Source of the DNA: Calditrichota bacterium
GTDB taxonomy: Bacteria; Electryoneota; AABM5-125-24; Hatepunaeales; Hatepunaeaceae
DNA length: 64,000 nt
NCBI GenBank assembly: GCA_016867835.1
Contig: VGIQ01000001.1
Coordinates: 10,094 to 74,093, forward strand
Reading direction: 5' to 3'
The notes under the pieces are model-generated. The model worked only from the letters and a program-made list of their open reading frames with translations. It was not told the DNA's origin and searched no databases. This document shows positions 2,406 through 26,870 of this stretch, in pieces. The translations under genes were made by a program, and so were the position numbers. Every line of letters begins with the position of its first letter. Positions within the stretch are counted from its first letter, which is position 1.

Positions 2406-3326
2406 TTGATGCTGACCTTCATCAGCATGATGCAAGACCATACAGTGATGGACCTCTTCAACCGCATCCTGCTTTCCCTTCTCTATCTTCTGACTATCAC
2501 GGTCGTCGTTTTCGTCGCAATAGACGCATGGGACTATTGGGCGACGCCGGGCATCGAGCGACCTTATCACCCCCGTCATTCGGATTATAAGCCTTCAGGC
2601 CGGATCGCTCACGGATTAGGGATTGCCGGATCGTCCTTGATGGTGGCGCTGCTCACCTATTCCGCACGTAAGCGGCTGCGAATCTTCCACGGCCGAGGCA
2701 ACATTCGCTGGTGGCTCAACTACCATATCTGGATGGGAATCACCGGCCCTCTTTTAGTCGTCCTGCACACATCGTTCAAGATCGGGGGGATAGTCGCGGT
2801 TTCGTTCTGGTCGATGGTCGGGGTGGCGCTCTCGGGTATCCTCGGTCGCTACCTATACCTGCAAATCCCGCGCACCCGGACCGGCGTTGAATTCCCACTT
2901 AAAGACCTGCAGAACGAAGAGATCCGTATGACAGCCGATCTAATGGATCGGTTTAACCTATCCGGAGACTCACTGGCGGCGGTGCAGGACTTCGAAGCAG
3001 GTCGAGCCAGGAGTGGGCTGCCCGGCCTATTCGGTATGCTTCTCGACAGCATTACCCGACCTTACCGACTGCACTTGCTCAGGAGGCGTTTGCAATCCGG
3101 GGGGAATCTCGACCGCTCAACTTTTCAGCAAGTGCTGCGTCTCGTCCGACGTCGGGTACTGCTATCCCGTCGCATTCGGTTCCTTGACACGGCACATCAG
3201 TTGCTGCATCACTGGCACGTTATCCACCGCCCGTTCGCAGTGGTGATGTTGGTGATTATGGTGATTCACATTGTCGTGGCGCTCCTGTTCGGCTACGTCT
3301 GGCTGCTTGGGCCTGAGGGCTCATGA
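2406..3326 (+). CDS. hypothetical polytopic membrane protein
   Basis: 306-aa ORF with several hydrophobic helices (LLSLLYLLTITVVVFVAI, LGIAGSSLMVALL, ITGPLLVVL, VAVSFWSMVGVALSGILG, VVMLVIMVIHIVVALLF). No known catalytic motif. Confidence 0.5.
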   Translation: MMLTFISMMQDHTVMDLFNRILLSLLYLLTITVVVFVAIDAWDYWATPGIERPYHPRHSDYKPSGRIAHGLGIAGSSLMVALLTYSARKRLRIFHGRGNIRWWLNYHIWMGITGPLLVVLHTSFKIGGIVAVSFWSMVGVALSGILGRYLYLQIPRTRTGVEFPLKDLQNEEIRMTADLMDRFNLSGDSLAAVQDFEAGRARSGLPGLFGMLLDSITRPYRLHLLRRRLQSGGNLDRSTFQQVLRLVRRRVLLSRRIRFLDTAHQLLHHWHVIHRPFAVVMLVIMVIHIVVALLFGYVWLLGPEGS

Positions 3327-3524: not shown

Positions 3525-4551
3525 CATACCCGGGGACGGGATCGGTATCGACGTTACCCGTGAGGCTTTGAAGGTTCTCGCCGCTATTCGCGACCAGGGC
3601 GTCGATTTGACCTGGGATGAGTTCGATTACGGCGCCGAGAAGTATCTCGCCACCGGAATCACCCTCCCCGATGCCCAGATCGACGAGTTTCGCCGCCACT
3701 ACGACGCTGTCTATGTCGGCGCGGTCGGCGACCCTCGCGTCCCCGATATGAAGCATGCTGCCGACATTCTGCTCGGTCTCCGATTCAAACTCGACCTCTA
3801 CGTCAACTACCGTCCCTGCCGACTGCTCGACGAATCGCTCTGCCCTCTGAAGGGCAAGCGCCCTTCCGATGTCAACTTCGTCGTTTTTCGTGAGAACACC
3901 GAGGGAATGTATGCCGGCGTCGGCGGGCACCTGAAGAAGGGCACTGCCGACGAGGTGGCGCTTCAGACTTCGATCAACACCCGCAAGGGCGTCGAGCGGA
4001 TCATTCGCCACGCCTTCGAGTATGCCAGGACATTCGGCCTAACCCGGGTGACGATGTCCGACAAGTCGAACGCGATGCGCTTCGAGGGTGACCTTTGGCA
4101 GCGGACGTTCTACGAGGTGGCTGCCGAATATCCGGACATCGAAGCTAACCATTGGTACATAGACGCGCTCCTGATGCAGATGGTGAAGCGACCCGAGCAG
4201 TTTCAGGTGATCGTCACGTCCAATATGTTCGGCGACATTGTAACCGATATGGGCGCGCAGATTTGCGGCGGGCTCGGTCTGGCGGCATCGGGGAACATCC
4301 ATCCCGGGCGGGTGTCGCTCTTCGAGCCGGTGCACGGCTCGGCGCCGAAGTATGCCGGCAAGGATGTAGCCAATCCCCTGGCTGCGATCCTGACCGCGGG
4401 ACTGATGCTGGAGCACCTTGGCCATCCGCAATGGACCTGGCAGCTTGAAGATACTGTCAAGGAGATGATTGCTTCCGGCGAAGTGCCGGTCGATATGGGA
4501 GGGAAGTTGGGGACGGCGGCGACAGGGGATAGGGTGGTGAGGGGGCTATAG
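3508..4551 (+). CDS. leuB: 3-isopropylmalate dehydrogenase (isocitrate/isopropylmalate dehydrogenase family)
   Basis: N-terminus MPKIAVIPGDGIGIDV and the NMFGDIVTDMGA and GSAPKYAGKD motifs of beta-decarboxylating dehydrogenases. 347 aa. Sits adjacent to leuC/leuD. Confidence 0.8.
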   Translation: MPKIAVIPGDGIGIDVTREALKVLAAIRDQGVDLTWDEFDYGAEKYLATGITLPDAQIDEFRRHYDAVYVGAVGDPRVPDMKHAADILLGLRFKLDLYVNYRPCRLLDESLCPLKGKRPSDVNFVVFRENTEGMYAGVGGHLKKGTADEVALQTSINTRKGVERIIRHAFEYARTFGLTRVTMSDKSNAMRFEGDLWQRTFYEVAAEYPDIEANHWYIDALLMQMVKRPEQFQVIVTSNMFGDIVTDMGAQICGGLGLAASGNIHPGRVSLFEPVHGSAPKYAGKDVANPLAAILTAGLMLEHLGHPQWTWQLEDTVKEMIASGEVPVDMGGKLGTAATGDRVVRGL

Positions 4552-5323
4552 TAATCCTAGATCTCTAAGCCTTGCCCTTAATGAGGCATCTCTTCCTATG
4601 TATTTGAAACCATGAATTTTAACAGACCTATTGTCAGGCATGATTTCGGAATCAAAGTAAGGTGCAATAGGCTGGAGATGATCGATAATGCCATTTTCTG
4701 CAAATTGAAAGACAACGCCTGCCAGGTGATCTGCCAACTGTAAGATGCGAGTGTCGTGGGAGGGACGGCAAGGTGAATACGGTTTCAATGACATTATCCA
4801 ACGGTGCCCAGCGATGCCCCTGCTGCTGGAAAGTCCTTTGCAAGCTTTGCAATATTCGGTCTTGAGTAGTTGTCCGTCGGTCGAACACAATGATTCCCTT
4901 ATGCCAAAACCCTTCGGCCCATCTCCGCTTCAAAAAGAGATTGAACCTTGAACTGAGCTGTTCGAACACCTCGTGCTCGATGGTGCTTTTCAGCGGACCA
5001 CAGGTATGCTTATCAATGATGACGCAAAAAGAACTGAAATCCCTGTGATGAAGTTGCCAAACCGACTCAATACGAGTCCATAGTGCGTTGCGATCATCGT
5101 GTGTCAGGTGCGAATAAACACCCTTTCCATGCCGCAGGTGCTTGAAATGAAACTCGACCCGTACTCCTGCATCCGGAAAGAAATCTCGTTGGATGTTTTC
5201 GATGTATTCAGTGACTTTTCGCCAGGCGCCTTCAAAGAGTGCTATGCCAGCCAGAACGTAGTGTCTGGTCGATTCCGCCCCCAAACCGGTATCACCGGAT
5301 TCATCTACGTAGAGGATATACAT
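4546..5323 (-). pseudogene. DUF3800-family protein gene, apparently frameshifted (N-terminal part in ORF 4652..5323, C-terminal part in ORF 4546..4890)
   Basis: N-terminus MYILYVDESGDTG is the DUF3800 hallmark. The conserved C-terminal segment (RILQLADHLAGVVFQF...) continues in a different frame after a C/G-tract near 4755-4770. The region is visibly lower in GC than its flanks. Confidence 0.5.
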
Positions 5324-5462: not shown

Positions 5463-6737
5463 TTGACCCTCGCTGAGAAGATCCTCGCCCGCCATTCGGG
5501 TCGCGACCGCGTCAAGCCCGGCGACCTAATGATGGCGAAGGTCGATATGGTGCTCGGCACCGACGTCACCGTCCCGCTCTCGGTCGAGGTTTTTCGCTCG
5601 ATGGGCGCGACGCGCCTTTTCAATCCGGCGAAGGTCGTCCTCGTCAACGACCACTTCGTCCCGGCCAAGGACGTCCAGGCCGCGACGCTCTCGCAGACGA
5701 TGCGCAACTTTGCCCGCGAGCAGGGTGTCGTTCATTACTACGAGGTCGGAAGGTCGGGGATCTGCCATTCGCTTCTGCCCGACGAAGGCCTCGTCGCACC
5801 GGGGGACCTCGTTGTCGGCGCGGACAGCCATACCTGCACTTACGGCGCGTTAGGCGCCTTCTCAACCGGCATCGGCTCGACCGATATGGCTTGCGCCTGG
5901 GCATTGGGGGAACTCTGGTTCCGCGTTCCGGAGACGATCCGGATCGACCTCTATGGTGAACCGGCTCCCTATGTCGGGGCCAAGGACATCATCCTAAACG
6001 TTATCGGAACACTTGGCGTCGATGGCGCGATCTATCAAGCACTTGAATTCGGCGGTGAAGCAATCCGCCAAATGACCATGGACGGACGGATCACGCTCTG
6101 CAATATGGCTATCGAAGCCGGCGCCAAAGCCGGCCTGATCGAACCGGACTGGACCACCGCAGCCTATATTGATGAAATCCGTCGCCGCAAGGGGCGTCCG
6201 GCGATGCCCGAAGCAGCCCTCGACCTGACCAGCGATCCCGATGCGCGTTATACGCGGCGGCTTGCCTTCGACGTCGGCTCCATCCGGCCTACCGTGGCGG
6301 TTCCCTACCTGCCATCGAACATTGCACCGGCGGCTGCGTTGGGTGACATCAAAGTTGATCAGGTAGTGATTGGCTCCTGCACCAACGGACGGATCGAGGA
6401 CTTCCGTATCGCTGCCGAAGTGTTGGGCGAAAGGCCGGTTCATCGGGAAGTTCGGCTGCTCATCATCCCGGCTACGCCTGAAATCTATAAAGCGCTCATC
6501 AGCGAAGGTCTTGCCGCGCAATTTATGGAAGCCGGAGCGGTTATCACGCCACCTACCTGCGGGCCTTGCATCGGCGGGCATATGGGGGTTCTGGGTGCCG
6601 GTGAGACCGGCCTCTTCACCACCAACCGCAACTTTCACGGCCGCAACGGGCATCCCGATTCACGGGTCTATCTGGCTGGACCGGCAGTGGCCGCGGCGAG
6701 CGCGGCAGCCGGGAGGATCGTTGAGCCGGAGAGATGA
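5463..6737 (+). CDS. leuC: 3-isopropylmalate (or homo-)aconitase-type dehydratase large subunit, archaeal-type (~420 aa)
   Basis: TTG start. Aconitase-family motifs are present (MTLAEKIL..., DSHTCTYGALGAF, CTNGRIED, PPTCGPCIGGHMG). 424 aa matches the LeuC/HacA type. Confidence 0.8.
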   Translation: MTLAEKILARHSGRDRVKPGDLMMAKVDMVLGTDVTVPLSVEVFRSMGATRLFNPAKVVLVNDHFVPAKDVQAATLSQTMRNFAREQGVVHYYEVGRSGICHSLLPDEGLVAPGDLVVGADSHTCTYGALGAFSTGIGSTDMACAWALGELWFRVPETIRIDLYGEPAPYVGAKDIILNVIGTLGVDGAIYQALEFGGEAIRQMTMDGRITLCNMAIEAGAKAGLIEPDWTTAAYIDEIRRRKGRPAMPEAALDLTSDPDARYTRRLAFDVGSIRPTVAVPYLPSNIAPAAALGDIKVDQVVIGSCTNGRIEDFRIAAEVLGERPVHREVRLLIIPATPEIYKALISEGLAAQFMEAGAVITPPTCGPCIGGHMGVLGAGETGLFTTNRNFHGRNGHPDSRVYLAGPAVAAASAAAGRIVEPER

Positions 6738-7285
6738 TGCGCTCACTGACTCTCTCGCCTGCCAATAGAGCAAAGTTCACTATGACCAACGATAGAGAAG
6801 AGCGGATCACCTTCGAACGGCTCTCCGACAGCCTCGGTTTCCGGGTCAACTATCTGGCGCGGCTGATGCGCAGTGAACTGGAGTTTCGCATCAAGCCGTT
6901 TGGGTTGAACGGCACTACCTGGCCGGTGATGGTTGCGCTCTACGAACAGGACGGTCAGTCCCAAAGCGATATTGGCGACCGCACCGGAATGGACGCGCCG
7001 ACGATGACCCGGGCTCTCGACAACCTCGAAGCGAGACGCTACATCGACCGCTACCGCGACGACCACGACCGCCGGGTGCAATTGATCCTGTTGACCCGCG
7101 AAGGTCGCAGCGTCGCCATCCGCGCAGCGCAAATCGGTGAGGAAATCAACCGCGAAACAGTCCAGTTGCTGTCGGAAGAGGAGCGGGAGATTCTTTGGAG
7201 CAGCGTCTCGCGAATCGAGACTGCTCTGAAGAGCCTGATCGAAAAACGGGTGGATTATTATGCTGACGAGGCGAGTCGGGTATGA
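6734..7285 (+). CDS. MarR-family transcriptional regulator
   Basis: Winged-helix region (LTRALDNLEARRYIDRYRDDHDRRVQLILLTREG) typical of MarR. ATGA overlap with the leuC stop. Inserted between leuC and leuD. Confidence 0.7.
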   Translation: MMRSLTLSPANRAKFTMTNDREERITFERLSDSLGFRVNYLARLMRSELEFRIKPFGLNGTTWPVMVALYEQDGQSQSDIGDRTGMDAPTMTRALDNLEARRYIDRYRDDHDRRVQLILLTREGRSVAIRAAQIGEEINRETVQLLSEEEREILWSSVSRIETALKSLIEKRVDYYADEASRV

Positions 7286-7354: not shown

Positions 7355-7852
7355 TTGTTGGGAGTTGCTTTCAAATACGGCGATTCGGTCGATACCGACG
7401 TCATCATTCCGGCGCGTTATTGCACCCGGTTCGATGCGGTTTATCTGGCGCAGCACTGCCTCGAAGACCTCGACGCGACATTTGCCAGCCGGGTCCGCCC
7501 CGGAGACATCGTCGTGGCAGGCGAGAACTTTGGCTGTGGCTCGTCGCGCGAGAACGCGCCGATTGCCATCAAAGGCGCCGGTGTTGCGGCGGTTATCGCA
7601 AAATCGTTCGCCCGCATTTTTTACCGCAACTCGATCAACATCGGCCTGCCGATCCTGATCTGTCCCGACGCCGTTGAAGGCATTCAAGACGGTGATAAAG
7701 TCGAGGTCGCACCCGCCAACGGGACGATTCGCAACCATACCCGGGGCGGGGAGTGGCAGGCAGCGGCGTTTCCGGCCGAGATCCAGGGCATCATCGAAGC
7801 CGGGGGACTGGTTGGCTATGTACGAGCCAGACTCCAAAACGCAGCCTCTTGA
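7355..7852 (+). CDS. leuD: 3-isopropylmalate dehydratase small subunit (LeuD, short archaeal-type)
   Basis: [22 protein letters not shown] and [14 protein letters not shown] are LeuD swivel-domain motifs. 165 aa. Confidence 0.8.
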
Positions 7853-8053
7853 CGCTCGTGGAGGGCGGGTTTCAACCCCCCAATAACGGATAGGAATGTC
7901 TGCCCTTCTGCACGGGCGACGCTGTGCAAAATCACCCAATCAAACGTCGGATACTGTGCCAAACCACACCTATACTGCATCAGTCCGTCCGGTATAGGCC
8001 AATAGCCTTGTAGATAGCCCGTTAGAATCACGTAAGTATCTAATAATCAGTTA

Positions 8054-8124: not shown

Positions 8125-9399
8125 ATGACTGGTATCGTGCCTGACCATAAGCCCGGATCAGGTCCTTATGGTGCGGCTTACATCCCTTATGGCGCCTGGG
8201 GCGGCAGTTGGTTTCCGGCCTGGCACACCAGCGCGTTGGCTGAGATCGATATCGGACGGTTCGCCGCTGAGGCTTTTGCCTTTGTCCTTGGGCAGCGCGG
8301 CATCCGCACTGTCGACCTCGACTACCTGATCAGTGGCTCGACGATTCCCTGGCTTTTCAAGTTCTGGGGTTCGCCCTATCTGTCGCATCTCTTCGGCAAA
8401 CGACTGCCCGGTTTTCACCTCGAGCAGGCCTGTGCGACGGGATTGCAGGTGATCGTCAAGGCGACCGCACAGGTTGCCTCGGGCAGCCACCGCGCGGTCG
8501 GGGTGCTCGCCTTCGACAAGACGAGCAACTCGCCGGCTTCGATCTTCCCAAACCAAGGCAGTTACCGCCGGACGGAAGTCCAAAGCGACGTGTGGGACAA
8601 TTTCGGCTTCGACCCGTCGGCGGGAGCCTCCGGACGGGCGCAAGCCTCCGGCGAGACTTCGATGATTGCTTGCGCCGGGCGAGCCTGCCGTCAGTTTAAA
8701 TTGGACTTCAGCGAGATTGCCGATCTCGCCTGGCATCGTTATCAGCAGTATTTCGACGCCAGGTCCTCGGGCTGGCTGGACCGGATTCTCTTCCCGATGT
8801 CGGTTCTCGACGTGCGTGGGCAGAAGATCGGAACCGTCGATGAAGACACCGGCGTCCGACGCTACGAATCGGCGGATCAGATCCGAGCCGAGCGGCAGAT
8901 CGACGCCGGGGTCAGCGCCGGAACCCAGACCCACGCCTCGGACGGAATGTTCGGGATGGTCGTAACCGACCGGGAGGGTTTGTCGCAATTCAGTTCCCGC
9001 CCTGAGATCGCGATTCAACTGCTTGGCGCAGCCGAATATCGCACCGCGCTTGGAATGATGCCCGAAGCCCCCGCGTTAGCCGCCGCGCAACTCCTGAACC
9101 GGCTCGGCCTGAAGATCGGCGATGTTACGACCTTCTACGACCACAATCCATTCGCTGTTAACGACTTGATCTTCGCGCGGCACTTCGGGATAGATTGGCA
9201 CCCGATGAACGAGACCGGCTGCCCGCTTGTCTATGGCCATCCGCAAGGTCCAACATTGGTGCGGGTCACCGTCGAAGCCCTTGAAAGAACCGTTGAAAAG
9301 GGCGGCGGACTCGCCCTGGTCTTCGGCTGTGCAGCCGGTGATGTCGGGATAGCCGCACTCTTTCGGGTCGATGATCATAAAGCGGGGGGATCAAAGTGA
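8125..9399 (+). CDS. divergent thiolase-family protein
   Basis: Active-site-like EQACATGLQV (thiolase N-terminal Cys region) and C-terminal GHPQGPT ... FGCAAGDVG resemble thiolase His/Cys signature regions. GTGA overlap with the next gene. Confidence 0.55.
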   Translation: MTGIVPDHKPGSGPYGAAYIPYGAWGGSWFPAWHTSALAEIDIGRFAAEAFAFVLGQRGIRTVDLDYLISGSTIPWLFKFWGSPYLSHLFGKRLPGFHLEQACATGLQVIVKATAQVASGSHRAVGVLAFDKTSNSPASIFPNQGSYRRTEVQSDVWDNFGFDPSAGASGRAQASGETSMIACAGRACRQFKLDFSEIADLAWHRYQQYFDARSSGWLDRILFPMSVLDVRGQKIGTVDEDTGVRRYESADQIRAERQIDAGVSAGTQTHASDGMFGMVVTDREGLSQFSSRPEIAIQLLGAAEYRTALGMMPEAPALAAAQLLNRLGLKIGDVTTFYDHNPFAVNDLIFARHFGIDWHPMNETGCPLVYGHPQGPTLVRVTVEALERTVEKGGGLALVFGCAAGDVGIAALFRVDDHKAGGSK

Positions 9400-18738: not shown

Positions 18739-20025
18739 GTGTTTTCTCAATTCAAATCCTGGTATGAAGAACGGCACGCTTACGCTAAAGGGTGGAAGGC
18801 GCGCACCGGCGGCAAAGTGATGGGCTGCTTTTGCAGTTATGCCCCCGAGGAAATCCTCGTCGCGGCGAACTGGCTCCCGGCGCGCGTGTTAGGCGGTCAC
18901 CAGCCCCAGGACGTCGCCGAAAAATATATGTTCGGGATGTATTGTCCCTTTTCCCGCGACGTCCTGGCGCAAGGGCTTAAAGGGCGCTACGACTATCTCG
19001 ACGGCATCCTGCTGACGCAAAGTTGCATTCACCTGCGGCAGTCGTTCAACTCATGGCAGATGCACGTTCCGGTGCCGTTCAATTACTACATCTATATGCC
19101 GCAGAAGGTTCAGACGCCTCATGCAGTGCCCTATCACCGGAGCGAACTGGCGAAGTTTCGCGCGGCTCTGGAGGCCTACGACGGGACAACGCTAAGTGAA
19201 GACGACCTGAACCGCGGCATCGCCGTCGTCAACGAGAACCGCCGCTTGATGCGCGAAGTCTATGAGTTTCGCAAAGGCGACAGCCCCAAGGTGACCGGCA
19301 CCGAAGCGATGTGGATGACCACCTCGAGCATGTGGGTTGATAAGGAGGAACATTCCGCCGAACTGCGGCGGGTGCTGAAGGAACTGCCCAACCGAAGCCT
19401 TACCCGCCAGACCGGGGCGAAATTGATGATCATCGGCTCGGAGAACGACGACATCCCGTTCATCGAGATGGTCGAAAAGGTCGGCGCGACGGTGGTGATG
19501 GACGAACACTGCACCGGGACGCGGTATTTTTGGAATCAATGTGAGGTTCCCCCCCTTCAATCCCCCCCGCTCAGCGGGGGGGAAGTGCGCGAGGATAAAT
19601 CCCCCCCGCTTAGCGGGAGGGAAGTGCGCGAGGATAAATCCCCTCCGCTTAGCGGGAGGGAAGTGCGCGAGGATAAATCCCCCCCGCTTAGCGGGGGGGA
19701 CGAGAAGGGGGGGCGCGACCTGATGACCGCGATCGCCCAGCGCTACATCGACCGCCCGACCTGCCCGGTGAAAGACTGGGAGGATCGCACCCGCTTCGAG
19801 CATATCCTGCGTCTGGCGCGGGAGTGGGAGGTGCAAGGCGCCATCATCATCCAGCAGAAGTTCTGCGACCCGCACGAGTGCGACATGGTGCCGCTAAGAG
19901 CCTTCCTGAACGAGCACGACATCCCGAACCTGATGCTCGAGTTCGACGCTACCACGCCGCTGGGGCCGTTTAGGATCAGGGTAGAAGCGTTCTTGGAGAT
20001 GATCGGGCAGGAGGAGTTGTTTTGA
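18739..20025 (+). CDS. 2-hydroxyacyl-CoA dehydratase / benzoyl-CoA reductase subunit family protein (HgdB/BcrB-like), carrying an in-frame 4x13-aa repeat insertion
   Basis: GTG start. Family-typical Cys-containing N-terminal region (GCFCSYAPEEIL ... LTQSCIHLRQS) and C-terminal FCDPHECD. 428 aa. Confidence 0.65.
   Translation: MFSQFKSWYEERHAYAKGWKARTGGKVMGCFCSYAPEEILVAANWLPARVLGGHQPQDVAEKYMFGMYCPFSRDVLAQGLKGRYDYLDGILLTQSCIHLRQSFNSWQMHVPVPFNYYIYMPQKVQTPHAVPYHRSELAKFRAALEAYDGTTLSEDDLNRGIAVVNENRRLMREVYEFRKGDSPKVTGTEAMWMTTSSMWVDKEEHSAELRRVLKELPNRSLTRQTGAKLMIIGSENDDIPFIEMVEKVGATVVMDEHCTGTRYFWNQCEVPPLQSPPLSGGEVREDKSPPLSGREVREDKSPPLSGREVREDKSPPLSGGDEKGGRDLMTAIAQRYIDRPTCPVKDWEDRTRFEHILRLAREWEVQGAIIIQQKFCDPHECDMVPLRAFLNEHDIPNLMLEFDATTPLGPFRIRVEAFLEMIGQEELF
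19552..19712 (+). repeat. 4 tandem copies of a 39-bp unit (AAGTGCGCGAGGATAAATCCCCCCCGCTTAGCGGGAGGG) inside the CDS, each containing a CCCCCGC-TTAG-GCGGG hairpin
   Basis: Translates in frame as SPPLSGGEVREDK / SPPLSGREVREDK x4. Copies differ at 1-2 positions. The hairpin core is identical to the intergenic repeats at 15070-15250. Confidence 0.8.
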
Positions 20026-20026
20026 A

Positions 20027-20068
20027 TGTAGAATGCAGAATGTAGAATGTAGAATGAGGAACGAGGGT
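20027..20068. repeat. short tandem repeat (GAATGTAGAAT)n
   Basis: gaatgtagaatgcagaatgtagaatgtagaatgaggaacgagg lies directly after the stop of the preceding gene. Confidence 0.6.
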
Positions 20069-20137
20069 TATTGCTTTGGAGGGGTATAGGTGTTATCTTT
20101 CAGAAAATCAGAATTTCTGAACGGTAGAGGGATTACA

Positions 20138-20407
20138 ATGAAAGTTCAACTACGTTCGAGACGCCAGATCACGCTTCCGGAAGAGGCGGTCAGCGAGTTG
20201 GGAATCAATGAGGGGGATGAGTTCATCGTGAAAGTCGAGGGCGATTCGCTGCGCCTGCTGCCGGTCGTTACCATTCCTCGGGATGAAGCCTATCTCTTCA
20301 CACCGGAATGGCAGAGGGCGCTTCAAACCGCCGAGAAGGAACTGCGCGAGGGCGAATACGAGACCTTCGCGAGCGTCGATGACCTGCTGAAGGACCTGAA
20401 CGACTGA
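20138..20407 (+). CDS. AbrB/MazE/SpoVT-family antitoxin
   Basis: MKVQLRSRRQITLPEEAVSELGINEGDEFIVKVEGDSLRLLPV is a swapped-hairpin AbrB-type motif. The ORF could start at 20090. Its stop overlaps the next start (ATGA). Confidence 0.6.
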   Translation: MKVQLRSRRQITLPEEAVSELGINEGDEFIVKVEGDSLRLLPVVTIPRDEAYLFTPEWQRALQTAEKELREGEYETFASVDDLLKDLND

Positions 20408-20673
20408 TGCAGATCATCCGGCTGAGTCAATTCAAGCGGATGTGGAAGAAACTGCCTGCGGACGTTCAGGCGAGGGCAGCGAAAGCGATCCGCCTGCTTG
20501 CCGCCGACCGGTCGCATCCGTCGCTTGGCTTGAAGCGGCTGCAACGGCTGCCTCAATACTTGGAGGTGCGCATCGACCGCGACCACCGGTTGATATGCCA
20601 GATGGGGAGCGAGGTTATCGTGCTGGTGGCGGTAGGGAGGCATGAGGTGTTGGGGAGGGTGAGGCAAAAGTGA
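20407..20673 (+). CDS. RelE/ParE-superfamily toxin (type II TA)
   Basis: 88-aa basic protein translationally coupled to the antitoxin. The pattern LPADVQARAAKAIRLLAAD ... YLEVRIDRDHRLI ... VLVAVGRHE resembles the RelE/ParE fold. Confidence 0.5.
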   Translation: MQIIRLSQFKRMWKKLPADVQARAAKAIRLLAADRSHPSLGLKRLQRLPQYLEVRIDRDHRLICQMGSEVIVLVAVGRHEVLGRVRQK

Positions 20674-20737
20674 AGCTAAACATCATCATTCCTTCGGAAG
20701 ATGGAATTCAGATCTACATTTCTTTGTAAAAACAGGA

Positions 20738-21742
20738 ATGAAGGCACTTTATTCAAATTGCATTTTCTGCGGCTGCGACTTAGACGAGACCAATAGATCT
20801 CGCGAGCATATCGTTCCACAGATCATAATGGGATCATTCATCAGTCAAGATGTCTGCAGATGCTGTAACAGCAAATTGAGCGAGGCGGATAAGCTTATAC
20901 TGAATGATCCACGGATTATTCAAGCTATAAACTGTCTTGAACTTTCTGATATTCAAAATAACATCCTGAGAATAGGTGAAACCATAGGAACAGATACACA
21001 GGATGGCGCCGAAAGAAGGTTTCATATGAAGGATGGGCACCCTATACTTATTCCCAAGCCATCTTTTACGGGTGAAAGAGTCGCGGATATAGATAACACC
21101 TTGCCTCTACTGCGCACATTGTTATCCAGAGACAAGGAGCTGAATTGGCCAAACGAAAAGGCAGGCCGATACATCGGTGAAATCGTAACGCCAGAATTTC
21201 TCAAACTCAAGCCGCATGAGAGTATCGATCTTCGAGAAGCGGGATACTCAATCGAAATGAGGCAGATTGGAAACATAGAGACACATTTTCCTGCCATTTC
21301 GTTTCAAGATCATAGATTGATCGCTAAAATAATATACGAGATCAGTTTCTATCTGCTTTCGCCCGAGATCGCTGAGTCAGCGATGAAAGATCTTGACTAT
21401 TATAGAGATGTAGCTTACGGAAGTATTGAAAGAGAAGAAGGCAGATTGTTTACAAGATCGGTGGAGCTTCTTAACGAACCCAACTATCTTCATAGGATTC
21501 AGATCTCATTCTCTGCCTCAAGCTTTCTTACGGTTGACATCGACCTCTTTGCAAGTGTAAACTATCACGCTATCATCAGAACTGATAGAACCTATCCGCT
21601 GCCAATTCTAAATTCCCGGCAGGTTACCGCTGTCGGGTTGGGGATGACCTTTAACGATACATCGAATAGACACTTTGCGATAAGGTACTTCAATGATGCA
21701 GATTGGGCGGTCGAAAGATTCGATGACGGAGAAGAACAGTGA
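20738..21742 (+). CDS. HNH-endonuclease-domain protein with ~270-aa uncharacterised C-terminal region
   Basis: CIFCGCDLDETNRSREHIVPQ ... CRCCNSKLSE is the HNH motif (CxxC, catalytic His in EHIVP, second CxxC). 334 aa. The region is markedly AT-richer than the window. Confidence 0.65.
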   Translation: MKALYSNCIFCGCDLDETNRSREHIVPQIIMGSFISQDVCRCCNSKLSEADKLILNDPRIIQAINCLELSDIQNNILRIGETIGTDTQDGAERRFHMKDGHPILIPKPSFTGERVADIDNTLPLLRTLLSRDKELNWPNEKAGRYIGEIVTPEFLKLKPHESIDLREAGYSIEMRQIGNIETHFPAISFQDHRLIAKIIYEISFYLLSPEIAESAMKDLDYYRDVAYGSIEREEGRLFTRSVELLNEPNYLHRIQISFSASSFLTVDIDLFASVNYHAIIRTDRTYPLPILNSRQVTAVGLGMTFNDTSNRHFAIRYFNDADWAVERFDDGEEQ

Positions 21743-22890
21743 CAATATCAACCCAAATGATCAATACTTGGACAGCTTCTTGGAAGCAACTGAGATACCT
21801 CGAGCGAGTGGGAGCATTACTTGCCATAGCAACTCTGACCGCCTCCTTATTTTATTGGGCGGGGAATGGATTCGCCGAGATACAAAATACACTTGGCTAC
21901 TATCCATCTGGAGTTGAAGAAGCGCTAGAGCAAAACCGCGAACTGGACCTAAAATATCCAACACGCCCGGGTCTAAGCAAGGATCTGGGAGAGGTTGCGG
22001 GAGTCTTGCTTTTCTTCATCGGAATTTGTCTAATCTTGTCATTGATTGATGCAGCCGTGAAATTGCCAATCTTGGCGGGATTGTTGGTCGCCCCAATATC
22101 TTTCCTATCGGGCAAGGGAACCACACATGAATACCTCATTCTATCCTTGCTCAACAATAACGCTATTGGTGGCAGAGGCGTGCTTTCACTTATCATGATA
22201 ACGCTTTCCGGAGTATTTGCGATGAGGGCTTTTCGGAAATCTTGGAGATTAAATTTCTCATTGCTAACTGCACTTGGAGTATTCGCGTCTTGGATAGGTA
22301 ATTTCATGGGTCAAGAATACAGCTATCGCGCCGGTATTTTGACGGCAGCTGCTGGAATTCTCCTTATCATAGCGCCAAAATCACTTAGGGATTCTTGTCT
22401 GACTTCCATCGAAGTGACTGGCGAAATATCTAAAGGTAGGCTTGACAGCTTGATTCAAAAAGCCACATTGTCTACCAGAATATTTGGCATTGCCTATTCT
22501 ATTCTTGGGCTTATTCTTGTTCTGGGAGTTGCAGGAACTATGGGAGATGAGTTTCTACAAGGAATCAAGAGAGGGGCACCTGTTAGTGATTCAAGCGGAA
22601 TCTTAGTGCTGGCCGTCATTCAGATATTGATAGGGATAGCTTTGCTTATGCTCTCTTTGATATCATCTAATCCAGCAATGCGGCGTCGATATCAGTTTTC
22701 CATCATCATAGGGATCATCTGGATCTTATTGCCTTATGAGGCACTTGACTTGTTAGCCCGATTGACCGATCCCGGCTTAAATGCTTTTGTAAAACTGTTG
22801 ACGTCTATTGGAATGATTATTGTACTCAAGACCGCAATTAGAGCTCGGGACGCCATTTATATGAATGTCAGCAATTCCAAGGAAACATAA
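21739..22890 (+). CDS. polytopic membrane protein (about 8-10 predicted TM helices), unknown function
   Basis: GTG start overlapping the upstream stop (GTGA). Repeated hydrophobic helices (VGALLAIATLTASLFYW, VLLFFIGICLILSLI, LPILAGLLVAPISFL, ILLIIAP, IFGIAYSILGLILVLGVAG, ILVLAVIQILIGIALLMLSLI, IIIGIIWILLPY, IGMIIVL). Low GC. Confidence 0.6.
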   Translation: MTISTQMINTWTASWKQLRYLERVGALLAIATLTASLFYWAGNGFAEIQNTLGYYPSGVEEALEQNRELDLKYPTRPGLSKDLGEVAGVLLFFIGICLILSLIDAAVKLPILAGLLVAPISFLSGKGTTHEYLILSLLNNNAIGGRGVLSLIMITLSGVFAMRAFRKSWRLNFSLLTALGVFASWIGNFMGQEYSYRAGILTAAAGILLIIAPKSLRDSCLTSIEVTGEISKGRLDSLIQKATLSTRIFGIAYSILGLILVLGVAGTMGDEFLQGIKRGAPVSDSSGILVLAVIQILIGIALLMLSLISSNPAMRRRYQFSIIIGIIWILLPYEALDLLARLTDPGLNAFVKLLTSIGMIIVLKTAIRARDAIYMNVSNSKET

Positions 22891-22911
22891 TCCGCATCAT
22901 TCGGAATACTA

Positions 22912-24204
22912 ATGTCCACCTACCCCACCGAACCCCTGAAGTGCTGGGCTAAAGCCAAGGAACTTCGGGATAACTACTATCGCGACTACGCCACCGCCCA
23001 CGAGTGCGGCGGGTTGCGCTGGACCGGCGGCGCTTGGTCGTTCGACGCCATCCCCGCCGGGCTAGGGCGCGACGTCTGGCCCATCACCGGCGAGCCTTAC
23101 GGCGCGTCGATGGCCTTCAACAAGCCATTCAGCCAGCGCGCCCTCGAAGCCGCCGAAGCCAAGGGCTGGGCGCGCGATCTCTGCAGTTATATGCGCAACT
23201 ACTGGGGGTCGATGTATCTCGACGAGTTCAACTTCGGCGGGAAGTATCCGAAGCCCGACTTCGCCTTTCAGGATCATATCTGCTGCTCCCACGCCAAGTG
23301 GTATCAGCATGTCGCGGAATACAAGCAGATCCCCTACTTTTGTATCGACGTTTCGGTCGGTCCCTATCACCTGATCGACGACCACAAACTGAACTTCGTC
23401 GTCGGGCAGATGCACGAGTCGATTGACTTCCTCGAGCGCATCACCGGCCGCCGCTACGACGACGAACTGCTGATCGAAGCGGTGCAGAACGAGACGCGAG
23501 CCACCTCCGCCTGGGCCGAGGTCTGTGCCCTCAACAAGGCGATCCCGGCACCGCTCGACGAAAAGACGATGTATTCGCTCTACGTCCTCGGGACGCTCAA
23601 CAAGTCGAAGAAGGAGTTCGCCGACTTCTACGAGGAATTGCGGGACGAGGTTGCCGACCGCGTGGCGCGCGGCATCGCTGCCGTTCCGAGCGAGCGTTGC
23701 CGGCTGATGTCCGATACCCAGCCGCCGTGGGGCTTCTTGAAGATATTCCGCTACCTCGAAGGCTTCGGCGCGGTCTCGGTCGGGAGCCTTTACACCTTCG
23801 CCCTAATCGGCATCTGGGAAGAGAAGCCGGACGGCAGTTGGGGCGCGCGGACAACTCCGATGGCCCTCGGCTTGCCGATGGATACCCGCGATCAGGCGCT
23901 CCGGATACTGGCGGACTGGAACCTCTCCAAACCCGAATGGCAGCATTTCTATGACGCAAGTTTGAAGTCGAAGATGATGCTGCGGATCGTCAAGGAATGG
24001 AAACTCGACGGCGTCATGCTGCACCTGAATCGCGGCTGCGAAGGCCTCTCCTGCGGCATAATGGAAAACCGCCTCGCCATCGCCGAAGCCGGCGTGCCGG
24101 TGATGACCTTCGAAGGCAATATGGGCGACGAGCGGGAGTTCGACGAAGCGAAGACCAAAGACCGCATGGATGCGTTCATGGAGACGCTGGGACTTAGGAA
24201 TTAA
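22912..24204 (+). CDS. 2-hydroxyacyl-CoA dehydratase / benzoyl-CoA reductase subunit family protein (HgdA/BcrC-like)
   Basis: [23 protein letters not shown] and [10 protein letters not shown] are Cys-motif regions typical of the HGD-D family. 430 aa. Confidence 0.65.
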
Positions 24205-25144: not shown

Positions 25145-25521
25145 ATGGGGACGGTCTTCAGGAAGGTGGAGGATATAGAGGTCTGGAAGCGGGCATGCAG
25201 GCTTGCGGTCGATCTCTATTCCCTCTGCGATCAGGAGCCGCTCGCCAAGGATTGGGGGCTTCGAGATCAGTTGCGGCGTGCGGCAGTTTCCATTGCATCG
25301 AACATCGCGGAGGGATATGAGCGAAACTCGCAAGCGGAATTCAGGAGATATCTCTTGATCGCCAAAGGTTCCTGCGTGAATTGAAGACGCAACACTACAT
25401 CCTGCAGGCATCCGGTAAGATTAGCGAGGCAGATTTGACAACCCTGATCGAACGCTGCATAGAACTATCTCAGATGATCGGCAGCCTCGCCTCCGCCATT
25501 CGCAAACAACATCTTGCATAA
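25145..25521 (+). pseudogene. four-helix-bundle (23S rRNA intervening-sequence-type) protein gene with a -1 frameshift
   Basis: The ORF ends ...[16 protein letters not shown]. The conserved continuation [43 protein letters not shown] is in the next frame (shift at about 25375-25381). Confidence 0.5.
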
Positions 25522-25568: not shown

Positions 25569-26459
25569 TTGGAGGAGTCAGCAATGTCAGTCGAATACTG
25601 GCGGTGGAAGGAATACAACTGGCGCAACGAAGCGGTCGATCCGCGCGGCGGAGGCATCCTCTCCGGAGGCGTCGATGTCGGATCGGTCTCATCGCAGGCG
25701 GTGGTGCTCTACGAAGGCAATCTCTACGCCTACAGCAATATGCGCACCGGCTCCGACTCGCCTGACAGCGCCCGCAAGGCGTTCGAGTGGGCGCTCGAAG
25801 GCACGGGACTGCAGGTTGGCGATATCCCCTTCATTGTCGGCACCGGTTACGGGCGGGTCAATGTGCCGTTTGCTCATAAAGCCATCACCGAGATTGCCTG
25901 TCATGCCCGCGGTGCCAATTATATGTATGGCCCGGCTGTCCGGACGCTGCTCGATATGGGCGGGCAGGACTGCAAGGCGATCCGCTGCGACGAACGGGGC
26001 AAGGTGACGAACTTCCTGATGAACGACAAGTGCGCTGCCGGGACCGGACGCGGGATGGAAGTCTTTGCCGATTTACTCGCAATCCCCATTGAGCAGGTCG
26101 GCGAAATGTCGTTCCAGGTCGAGAGCGAGCCGACGCCGGTCTCTTCGACCTGTGTCGTCTTCGCCAAGACCGAAGCCGCCGGGCTGCTCCGGTCCGGCTG
26201 GCCGAAGAACCTTGTCCTCGCGGCCTACTGCTCGGCGATGGCGCATCGCGTCGTTTCGCTGATCGAGCGGCTCGGTATGGAAGGCGGGTTCGCGATCACC
26301 GGCGGCATTGCCAAGAACAGCGGCGTCGTCCGGCGCCTCGAAAAGGAACTCGGCGTTACCTCGATGACCAGTTCCTACGACACTCAGATCGCGGGTGCGC
26401 TCGGCGCGGCACTATTTGCGAAGGCGCTGCTTGAGAAGGGCTTGGGGCTCAAGGCTTAG
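25569..26459 (+). CDS. BadF/BadG/BcrA/BcrD-type ATPase, copy 2 (distinct paralogue)
   Basis: GVDVGSVSSQAVVL and NDKCAAGTGRGME. 296 aa. The likely start is ATG at 25584 (MSVEYW). Confidence 0.75.
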   Translation: MEESAMSVEYWRWKEYNWRNEAVDPRGGGILSGGVDVGSVSSQAVVLYEGNLYAYSNMRTGSDSPDSARKAFEWALEGTGLQVGDIPFIVGTGYGRVNVPFAHKAITEIACHARGANYMYGPAVRTLLDMGGQDCKAIRCDERGKVTNFLMNDKCAAGTGRGMEVFADLLAIPIEQVGEMSFQVESEPTPVSSTCVVFAKTEAAGLLRSGWPKNLVLAAYCSAMAHRVVSLIERLGMEGGFAITGGIAKNSGVVRRLEKELGVTSMTSSYDTQIAGALGAALFAKALLEKGLGLKA

Positions 26460-26484
26460 GGCTCAAGATCACTCAAGGGGTGAG

Positions 26485-26870
26485 ATGATGTCAAGGGACT
26501 ACCGGAAACTTCGGGTATTTCGATCGGCGCAAAGTCTTGCCCTTATGGTCTATGAATCGACCAGACTATTTCCAAATGAAGAGTTGTTCGGAGCAACGAA
26601 CCAATTGCGCCGGGCAGCGCTATCAGTTCCAACTAACTCCGTTGAGGGCTCTCATCGCACCAGTCGCGGAGATTGCTTGAGATTCCTCGACGTTGCGATG
26701 GGGTCGCTTGCAGAAACTGGATACCTGATCGACTTCGCTGCCAGTCTCGGCCATTTGCCGCAAGACAAACGGGACAATCTGCTTGCCCAATAGACTGAAT
26801 GCGCCCAACTCCTCGGCGCGCTTATCAATTCACACCGCAGGGCGAATGATTCCAAAATTCTTAAGCCCTG
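26485..26870 (+). pseudogene. second four-helix-bundle (IVS-type) protein gene, interrupted by an in-frame TAG at 26791-26793
   Basis: MMSRDYRKLRVFRSAQSLALMVYE ... NSVEGSHRTSRGDCLRFLDVAMGSLAETGYLIDFA is the family core. The reading frame continues after the TAG (TECAQLLGALIN...) as the expected C-terminal helix. Confidence 0.45.

Follow-up and report, generated by a model that had tools for sequence, protein, structure and literature searches.

An AT-rich HNH_5 nuclease gene and a membrane-protein gene set into a benzoyl-CoA degradation operon: a possible mobile nuclease cassette

Free-standing HNH homing endonuclease genes, such as the mob genes of T4 and those of the I-HmuI type, are single HNH open reading frames (ORFs) between intact, co-oriented and conserved genes. 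They are foreign in composition and patchy in distribution, some copies are decayed, and they are commonest in viruses. We describe a family of HNH_5 nucleases that shares this gene setting, composition, distribution and decay, starting from one member in a 64,000-nt stretch of a Calditrichota bacterium genome (contig VGIQ01000001.1; this whole stretch is called the window). There, the genes of a 334-aa nuclease and of a 383-aa polytopic membrane protein, together called the cassette, lie within a benzoyl-CoA degradation operon. The family differs from free-standing homing endonucleases in being chromosomal, in occurring in diverse bacterial phyla and in not being found in viral collections, and modules of the NUMOD or helix-turn-helix type are missing from its long conserved C-terminal domain. 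Moreover, the window cassette carries a second gene, and neither an insert-free allele nor a cleavage site is known.

The HNH subtype is that of Septu PtuB and other HNH_5 (PF14279) nucleases, with the same two CxxC zinc knuckles and the same EH...N...D catalytic set. Unlike in Septu, no PtuA-type AAA15/21 ATPase adjoins the gene, the neighbours being a ParE-like toxin, the membrane protein with 10 transmembrane (TM) helices, BzdN and BzdO. The window protein also had no PADLOC PtuB match (E ≤1) and has an extra C-terminal domain of ~270 aa. Compared with McrA-type (type IV) HNH restriction enzymes, the domain order is reversed, as the HNH domain is N-terminal in the window protein, and the second domain is unlike any solved reader domain (SRA, EVE, SBD or the McrA N-terminal domain).

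Zorya II (ZorAB+ZorE), Kiwa (KwaAB) and hydrolase-3TM are superficially similar, with a nuclease gene beside a membrane-protein gene. However, no component model of these systems matched in PADLOC or Pfam, the membrane protein was unrelated to MotAB-like or KwaA proteins by the same profiles, and the pairing is not conserved in relatives of the nuclease.

PF14279 endonucleases are among the commonest functions on metagenomic integron gene cassettes (PMC7370490). Integron cassettes with HNH_5 genes and toxin-antitoxin (TA) pairs resemble the window cassette in being compact, promoterless units of co-oriented ORFs. They differ in that the window cassette has no palindrome of attC size, and no integrase was seen.

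The reading that we favour, with a confidence somewhat below an even chance, is a compact, laterally mobile and selfish nuclease cassette, similar to a homing endonuclease and carrying a lineage-specific membrane-protein passenger. The HNH domain would cut DNA, and the C-terminal domain would give target recognition or control. The cassette would spread through break-induced repair or else recombine at the short repeats and hairpins of its ends, and copies would afterwards drift and decay. The 10-TM protein would be lineage-specific, a passenger or accessory that came from the same AT-rich donor together with the nuclease gene; it would be co-translated, and the nuclease would work without it. 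The parts of the cassette are:

20674..20737, no strand: cassette leader and left junction, with one copy of the repeat CATCATTC (20684-20691) and a hairpin (20687-20707).
20738..21742, + strand: HNH_5 nuclease gene, 334 aa (Pfam HNH_5, PF14279).
21739..22890, + strand: gene of the 383-aa polytopic inner-membrane protein, an ORF with ~10 TM helices and without a family match.
22891..22911, no strand: right junction, with the second copy of CATCATTC (22895-22902), then GGAA, and the 13-mer ATCATTCGGAATA (22896-22908).

The GC content was 0.430 in the nuclease gene and 0.442 in the membrane-protein gene, and the GC content at third codon positions (GC3) was 0.445 and 0.432, respectively. In the flanking genes, GC was 0.599 (bzdN; GC3 0.776) and 0.608 (bzdO; GC3 0.821). 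Among the 1-kb bins of the whole 64 kb, only those at 21–23 kb fell below 50% GC. The block at ~20684-22902 is AT-rich foreign DNA, inserted with precision in the spacer that separates bzdO from the TA pair. The original prediction, made from the sequence without database searches, had described a low-GC block of ~2.2 kb and a precise insertion of foreign DNA; the GC and GC3 contrast, the bins and the borders within the spacer agree with both. It had also placed the block between HgdB-like and HgdA-like genes. The place was right and the names were not, the flanks being BzdN and BzdO (TIGR03190 and TIGR03191).

The cassette has the same orientation as the bzd operon. The next gene does lie close downstream, as had been noted, at a distance of 21 nt from the membrane-protein gene rather than 20 bp. 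A promoter scan of the 64-nt cassette leader gave no promoter-like site, no plus-strand terminator was found between bzdN and bzdO, and Rfam had no match in the region. The likeliest source of cassette transcripts is therefore read-through that begins at the TA or bzd promoters.

The same four-gene stretch was present in four short contigs of other assemblies, and these show 100% identity with the window across 2.95 kb. As all five assemblies of the locus are 100% identical, they hold no polymorphism on which selection on the window copy could be measured.

In the nuclease, HNH_5 matched residues 8–48 (E 2.3e-8; 34.3 bits against a gathering cut-off of 27.5 bits), which verified both the ORF and the N-terminal HNH motif (MKALYSNCIFCG...EHIVPQ...CRCCNSK) that had been read from the translation. 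The zinc cysteines are C8, C11, C40 and C43, and the catalytic residues are E23-H24, N44 and D51. Conserved polar residues of the C-terminal domain are K197, E201, H252 and D267. In an alignment of 37 sequences, C8, C11, H24, C40, C43, D51, K197 and H252 were invariant and E23 was kept in at least 90%; N44, E201 and D267 were invariant in an alignment of 11 closer relatives. The nuclease is predicted to be active, because the zinc cysteines and catalytic residues are kept across the family.

The ~270-aa stretch behind the HNH motif, which the original prediction could not place, did not find a home in the databases either. Residues 58–334 (277 aa) had no Pfam match even at E 10. An AlphaFold2 model built with the family alignment reached a mean predicted local distance difference test (pLDDT) score of 90.7 and a predicted template modelling score of 0.86, and Foldseek of this model against the PDB gave no match at E ≤1e-3. 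The predicted viral structures of BFVD gave a single match, an uncharacterised Myoviridae protein (E 5e-4, template modelling score only 0.26–0.31). The PDB sequence search with the family profile returned nothing meaningful. By these searches, the C-terminal domain is without a characterised relative.

A search for relatives of the nuclease with HMMER covered all of 1.84 billion cluster representatives (50% identity) at E ≤1e-3. It found 118 relatives (cluster representatives) with full-length matches, most of them 320–345 aa long; the nearest were 38% and 36% identical to the window protein. A word-index search found only the nuclease itself, and only four proteins with a profile query. All 37 aligned members matched HNH_5 and no other Pfam family. 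The family clusters that we examined were all tiny, environmental and without names. Hence, the family is rare yet phylogenetically wide, combining an N-terminal zinc-bound HNH_5 domain with a conserved C-terminal domain of no recognised fold. No relative was found in IMG/VR contigs, INPHARED phage genomes or PLSDB plasmids. The domain type is known, and the gene already bears the annotation 'HNH endonuclease': NCBI lists an identical protein as 'MAG: HNH endonuclease [Calditrichaeota bacterium]'. The novelty lies in a coherent family whose conserved domain is uncharacterised, in an intra-operon habit and in possible cassette ends.

About 20 distinct loci of the family were collected (L005/L006, the P0121 contig, L007-L010, L011/L013, L014, L015, L016-L034, L035 and L036-L039), and the genome scan for relatives used the 11-sequence alignment. 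L007-L010 come from Hydrogenedentota and Nitrospiraceae genomes. Elsewhere, the nuclease gene is a solitary AT-rich islet, often within co-directional housekeeping operons. In nearly every locus it was AT-rich relative to its surroundings, for example:

L036: nuclease GC3 0.25, flanks GC3 0.64.
L038: nuclease GC3 0.30, flanks GC3 0.75–0.83.
L013: nuclease GC 0.43, flanks GC 0.585.
L008: nuclease GC 0.48, flanks GC 0.61.

Several copies lay inside co-directional operons with short spacers, the nuclease ORF standing between conserved genes of which none was disrupted. The clearest mid-operon insertion was that of L036/L037, where a MacB-type ABC export operon has two paralogous pairs of FtsX-permease genes (60–65% identical across the pairs) and the nuclease gene (6001-7017) separates one pair from the other. 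The L005 gene lies between an isoamylase gene (glgX) and glgB, and the L038 gene 14 nt upstream of tag.

A neighbour census (95 ORFs at 18 loci) returned mostly housekeeping genes. Only one neighbour recurred, a secreted protein of the Trypsin_2 family, which adjoins the HNH gene in a single distant clade at L020/L021 (3387-4412 in L021 coordinates), L026 (1834-3015) and L029 (2494-3609). It lies upstream in one lineage and downstream in the other, and the proteases are ~35% identical across the lineages. The Trypsin_2 protein may be a real partner in this clade. An enrichment of exported or membrane neighbours was considered and rejected: they occurred at about the background rate and were mutually unrelated, save for these Trypsin_2 proteins.

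Some copies were split. The split at L009 (5986-7029) was identical to that at L019 (1971-3014), and since the two assemblies are independent, L009, a Nitrospiraceae locus, is a real pseudogene. The L010 gene (5977-6998) is also split, which could be a long-read indel error.

At the cassette borders, CATCATTC forms a direct repeat of 8 nt, or 12 nt with a 4-nt indel allowed. The copies lie 46 nt upstream of the nuclease ATG and 4 nt past the membrane-protein stop codon, and GGAA follows both, with the 4-nt indel at the left border. This match length was reached in 64 of 5000 shuffles and in 74 of 5000 random genomic pairs (~1.3–1.5%). The reconstructed insert-free junction would read ...AAACATCATCATTCGGAATACTAATG....

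The 13-mer ATCATTCGGAATA begins exactly 6 nt past the stop codon of the cassette, and ATCATGCGGAATA begins exactly 6 nt past the stop codon of the L036 nuclease gene (consensus ATCAT[T/G]CGGAATA). Within 236 kb of related loci, the window and L036 were the only motif matches at ≤1 mismatch (estimated post hoc p ~1e-3). The hairpin of the left spacer is 21 nt long (CATTCC-TT-C-GGAA-G-AT-GGAAT). Over 252 kb, the only related hairpins were two copies in the downstream spacer of the L015 gene and one at a distance of 46 nt downstream from the L007 gene; the stems of the four sequences show compensatory changes, with a 1-nt register shift.

Three further loci carried repeats of their own. At L017, a 35-nt direct repeat flanks an AT-rich islet of two genes, a lipoprotein gene and the HNH gene. 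At L005, a leader of ~185 nt (7779-7960) is repeated right after the HNH stop codon (8988-9172) with 70–75% identity. At L038, CAGGAGCAC precedes both start codons. As a cassette feature, the border repeats are suggestive and do not appear to be a rule.

The L017 repeat has the form of a terminator-like hairpin (ACACTGGCGGACAAGCC...; 4230-4264 and 6036-6070), with a weaker copy between the two genes (4937-4955). Integron attC sites, for which we looked for an imperfect palindrome of 55–140 nt with RYYYAAC ... GTTRRRY cores at the 3' end, were rejected at the window borders, as the spacers are too short (3' spacer 21 nt), R'/R'' core sites are lacking and the 5' side has only the 21-nt hairpin. 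At L026, a distant member, the HNH start is preceded at 21 nt by a nested imperfect palindrome of ~165 nt (590-756), the last bases of which, GTTAGGC, fit the consensus of integron core sites; by its sequence the palindrome would resemble an attC site, and the short contig holds no integrase. What looked like an attC upstream of the L023 gene was discarded as a fold-back assembly artefact at the contig end. The L023 ends (1-242 and 2926-3177) carry such fold-back inverted repeats of 105–117 nt, which mimic palindromic sites by the HNH gene.

The original prediction took the two cassette genes for a candidate two-gene, defence-like system and named their co-occurrence in other genomes as the test. 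In such a defence or abortive-infection system, the nuclease and the 10-TM protein would cooperate, the latter as effector, anchor or sensor. Several features speak for it. The GTG start of the membrane-protein gene overlaps the TGA stop of the nuclease gene (GTGA), and a good Shine-Dalgarno sequence, GGAG, lies 7 nt upstream. The two genes have the same foreign composition, lie within one repeat-bounded unit and adjoin a TA pair. In the islets of L013 and L017, the only two of this kind, the low-GC neighbour is likewise an exported protein.

The predicted overlap and the 383-aa ORF with 8–10 TM helices were both verified, with ~10 TM helices by Kyte-Doolittle hydropathy and an N-in/C-in topology that agrees with the positive-inside rule. 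One gene caller starts the ORF at an ATG at 21757 instead (377 aa). Translational coupling of the membrane-protein gene to the nuclease gene is therefore likely, not certain. The protein has short loops and no soluble domain, which does not favour the two-gene system. It had no match in Pfam, NCBIfam, PADLOC, PHROGs or the PDB sequences, nor among IMG/VR contigs, INPHARED phages and PLSDB plasmids. The word-index search found only the protein itself; the same search also missed all remote relatives of the nuclease. Its single-sequence AlphaFold2 model (pLDDT 47.5) was unusable.

The comparison of loci was also unfavourable to the two-gene system. A tblastn search at E ≤10 over 35 loci (228 kb) found no homologue of the membrane protein beside the nuclease relatives, only noise, and no co-acquired polytopic partner was found in the ~20 family loci. 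The closest relatives with downstream sequence (L011/L013, L014, L015 and L035) are 31–36% identical. Downstream of the L011 and L013 genes there is non-coding DNA and then a convergent gene, the L014 gene is followed by an MNT-HEPN pair, and the L015 gene by pyruvate:ferredoxin oxidoreductase. The membrane partner is thus missing at every other family locus. As the pair never co-occurs around the nuclease relatives, it is, by the original prediction's own test, not a conserved two-gene system, and the claim did not hold as seen from the nuclease side. Neither gene matches a defence family. The earlier remark that the pair corresponds to no named system held up, as PADLOC, Pfam, NCBIfam and PHROGs gave HNH_5 only. 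Because the genes are coupled, share their composition and lie in one repeat-bounded unit, we still allow the two-gene system a small probability and consider it improbable.

L011 and L013, the closest sequenced pair of loci, share a co-transferred AT-rich gene for a 225-aa protein with a signal peptide and no assigned family. The ratio of non-synonymous to synonymous substitution rates (dN/dS) between them was ~1 for both genes (0.93 and 1.3); the value of the nuclease gene, from few substitutions, would fit drift.

The tight coupling of the two genes would also suit a toxin-immunity or bacteriocin-like pair, with an HNH DNase as toxin and the membrane protein for immunity or export. HNH DNases often serve as toxins, colicins and polymorphic toxins being examples. 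However, immunity to nuclease toxins is normally given by small cytosolic binding proteins and not by 10-TM proteins, and family members are found without such a partner. No signal peptide, delivery domain or receptor domain was found in the nuclease by Pfam, hydropathy or the model. We consider this explanation very unlikely indeed.

The main rival to a mobile cassette is a defence nuclease that stands alone: one gene would suffice as effector against phages or plasmids, in the manner of type IV restriction or abortive infection. The C-terminal domain would then detect foreign DNA, modified DNA or a phage trigger and free the HNH domain, and the membrane protein would be a passenger. Like type IV enzymes, the nuclease is solitary, patchy, AT-rich and sometimes pseudogenised, and two clades are under purifying selection. 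HNH_5 is the HNH type that serves as effector partner of AAA15/21 ATPases in defence systems (PMC11464382). Two of the 37 aligned members matched PtuB models weakly (E ~0.005–0.01), and PADLOC gave no convincing match over the 37. TA-like neighbours occur at the window (MazE-ParE), L014 (MNT-HEPN), L018 (PIN_4), L009 (DUF6036 nucleotidyltransferase) and L024 (NYN), and the L039 gene adjoins that of a 1832-aa DEAD/Helicase_C/MZB protein.

Against a stand-alone defence nuclease, there is no match to a PADLOC family, defence genes seldom insert midway into metabolic or transport operons, and the C-terminal domain is unlike known folds that read modified DNA or act as sensors. The neighbours are mainly housekeeping genes, as the census showed, so that the defence-island setting for which the original prediction proposed to look elsewhere was not borne out. 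On balance, a stand-alone defence nuclease appears somewhat unlikely.

At L039 (7143-12641), the nuclease gene is followed by that of the large protein (DEAD/Helicase_C/MZB, DUF1998), and the seven ORFs that precede it have no Pfam match.

Several observations weigh against the mobile, selfish cassette that we favour. Exact look-ups with ParE and BzdO gave insert-bearing contigs only and so revealed no insert-free allele, which makes homing undemonstrable at present. The flanking repeat is absent from most family loci, and the statistics of the junction motif are post hoc. The viral collections searched held no relative of the nuclease. The dN/dS was ~0.2 in two clades, which is purifying selection. 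Such selection and a long C-terminal domain conserved across phyla are unlike the typical fast-evolving DNA-binding modules of homing endonucleases. TA-like modules adjoin the nuclease in four to five loci and L039 may be a defence island, both hints of a conflict or defence setting.

The standing of the membrane protein as a mere passenger is weakened as well. Coupling and the same composition would argue for co-expression and joint arrival of both genes, as expected of a functional pair. The nearest relatives with downstream sequence are only 31–36% identical, so a sub-lineage in which the pair persists may have escaped sampling. Relatives of the membrane protein were absent from the word-index search, and remote homologues were not exhaustively sought.

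A more specific proposal goes beyond the mobile cassette, and we regard it as speculative and doubtful. The ~330-aa proteins with HNH_5 and the C-terminal domain would form an undescribed class of nuclease-only mobile cassettes that enter operon spacers across phyla, with borders made up of short repeats and a small conserved hairpin. The C-terminal domain (K197, E201, H252 and D267) would contribute to target choice or insertion chemistry, and the window cassette would have captured the membrane-protein gene as cargo.

The genes flanking the cassette are:

18739..20025, + strand: bzdN, benzoyl-CoA reductase subunit N (bzd type); NCBIfam TIGR03190, 497 bits, match in two stretches; GC3 0.776.
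20090..20407, + strand: MazE/AbrB-type antitoxin gene; Pfam PF04014, E 3e-8; GC3 0.64, host-like.
20407..20673, + strand: ParE-like toxin gene; Pfam PF24732, E 1.3e-10; GC3 0.79, host-like.
22912..24204, + strand: bzdO, benzoyl-CoA reductase subunit O (bzd type); NCBIfam TIGR03191, 738 bits; GC3 0.821.

The host cluster is a full benzoyl-CoA degradation cluster with oah, a had-like short-chain dehydrogenase/reductase gene, a thiolase gene, dch, bzdN, bzdO, bzdP/Q-like genes and a ferredoxin-like ORF. The type II TA pair that had been read directly upstream of the cassette was identified by Pfam as MazE/AbrB plus ParE-like. The toxin start overlaps the antitoxin stop (ATGA) and both proteins have family matches, as is characteristic of type II TA pairs. 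The antitoxin start preferred by the gene callers is an ATG at 20138, which gives 89 aa. Owing to its host-like GC, the TA pair stands outside the AT-rich block.

Within bzdN, an in-frame tandem array (19559-19700) consists of 3.6 copies of a 39-nt unit with 95% matches and holds the G/C-rich palindrome CCCCCGCTTAGCGGGAGGG. It adds about four copies of SPPLSG(G/R)EVREDK to BzdN and cuts the TIGR03190 match in two. The window holds no second copy of the array, and the assemblies of other samples break at it. Between bzdN and the antitoxin gene, the spacer holds 4.7 copies of a 7-nt tandem repeat, GAATGTA (20024-20056), which may be an operator for the AbrB-type antitoxin. Two ORFs of the 'four helix bundle protein' type (TIGR02436, 23S rRNA intervening-sequence type; 25145-25384 and 26395-26793) are interleaved with the bzdP/bzdQ-like genes, the first of them truncated (79 aa). 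With these two ORFs, the bzd operon holds several small accessory insertions in addition to its TA pair and the cassette.

Adjacency, gene overlap and an upstream TA pair in one genome are not sufficient to define a system, and this pair failed the first test of conservation. If the nuclease is a stand-alone defence protein, it would be a single-gene system with a new sensor fold. If the cassette is self-mobilising, it would be a chromosomal bacterial counterpart of the free-standing homing endonucleases of phages, with a new accessory domain and the capacity to carry cargo. This would also account for foreign ORFs in tightly packed metabolic operons that are left unbroken.

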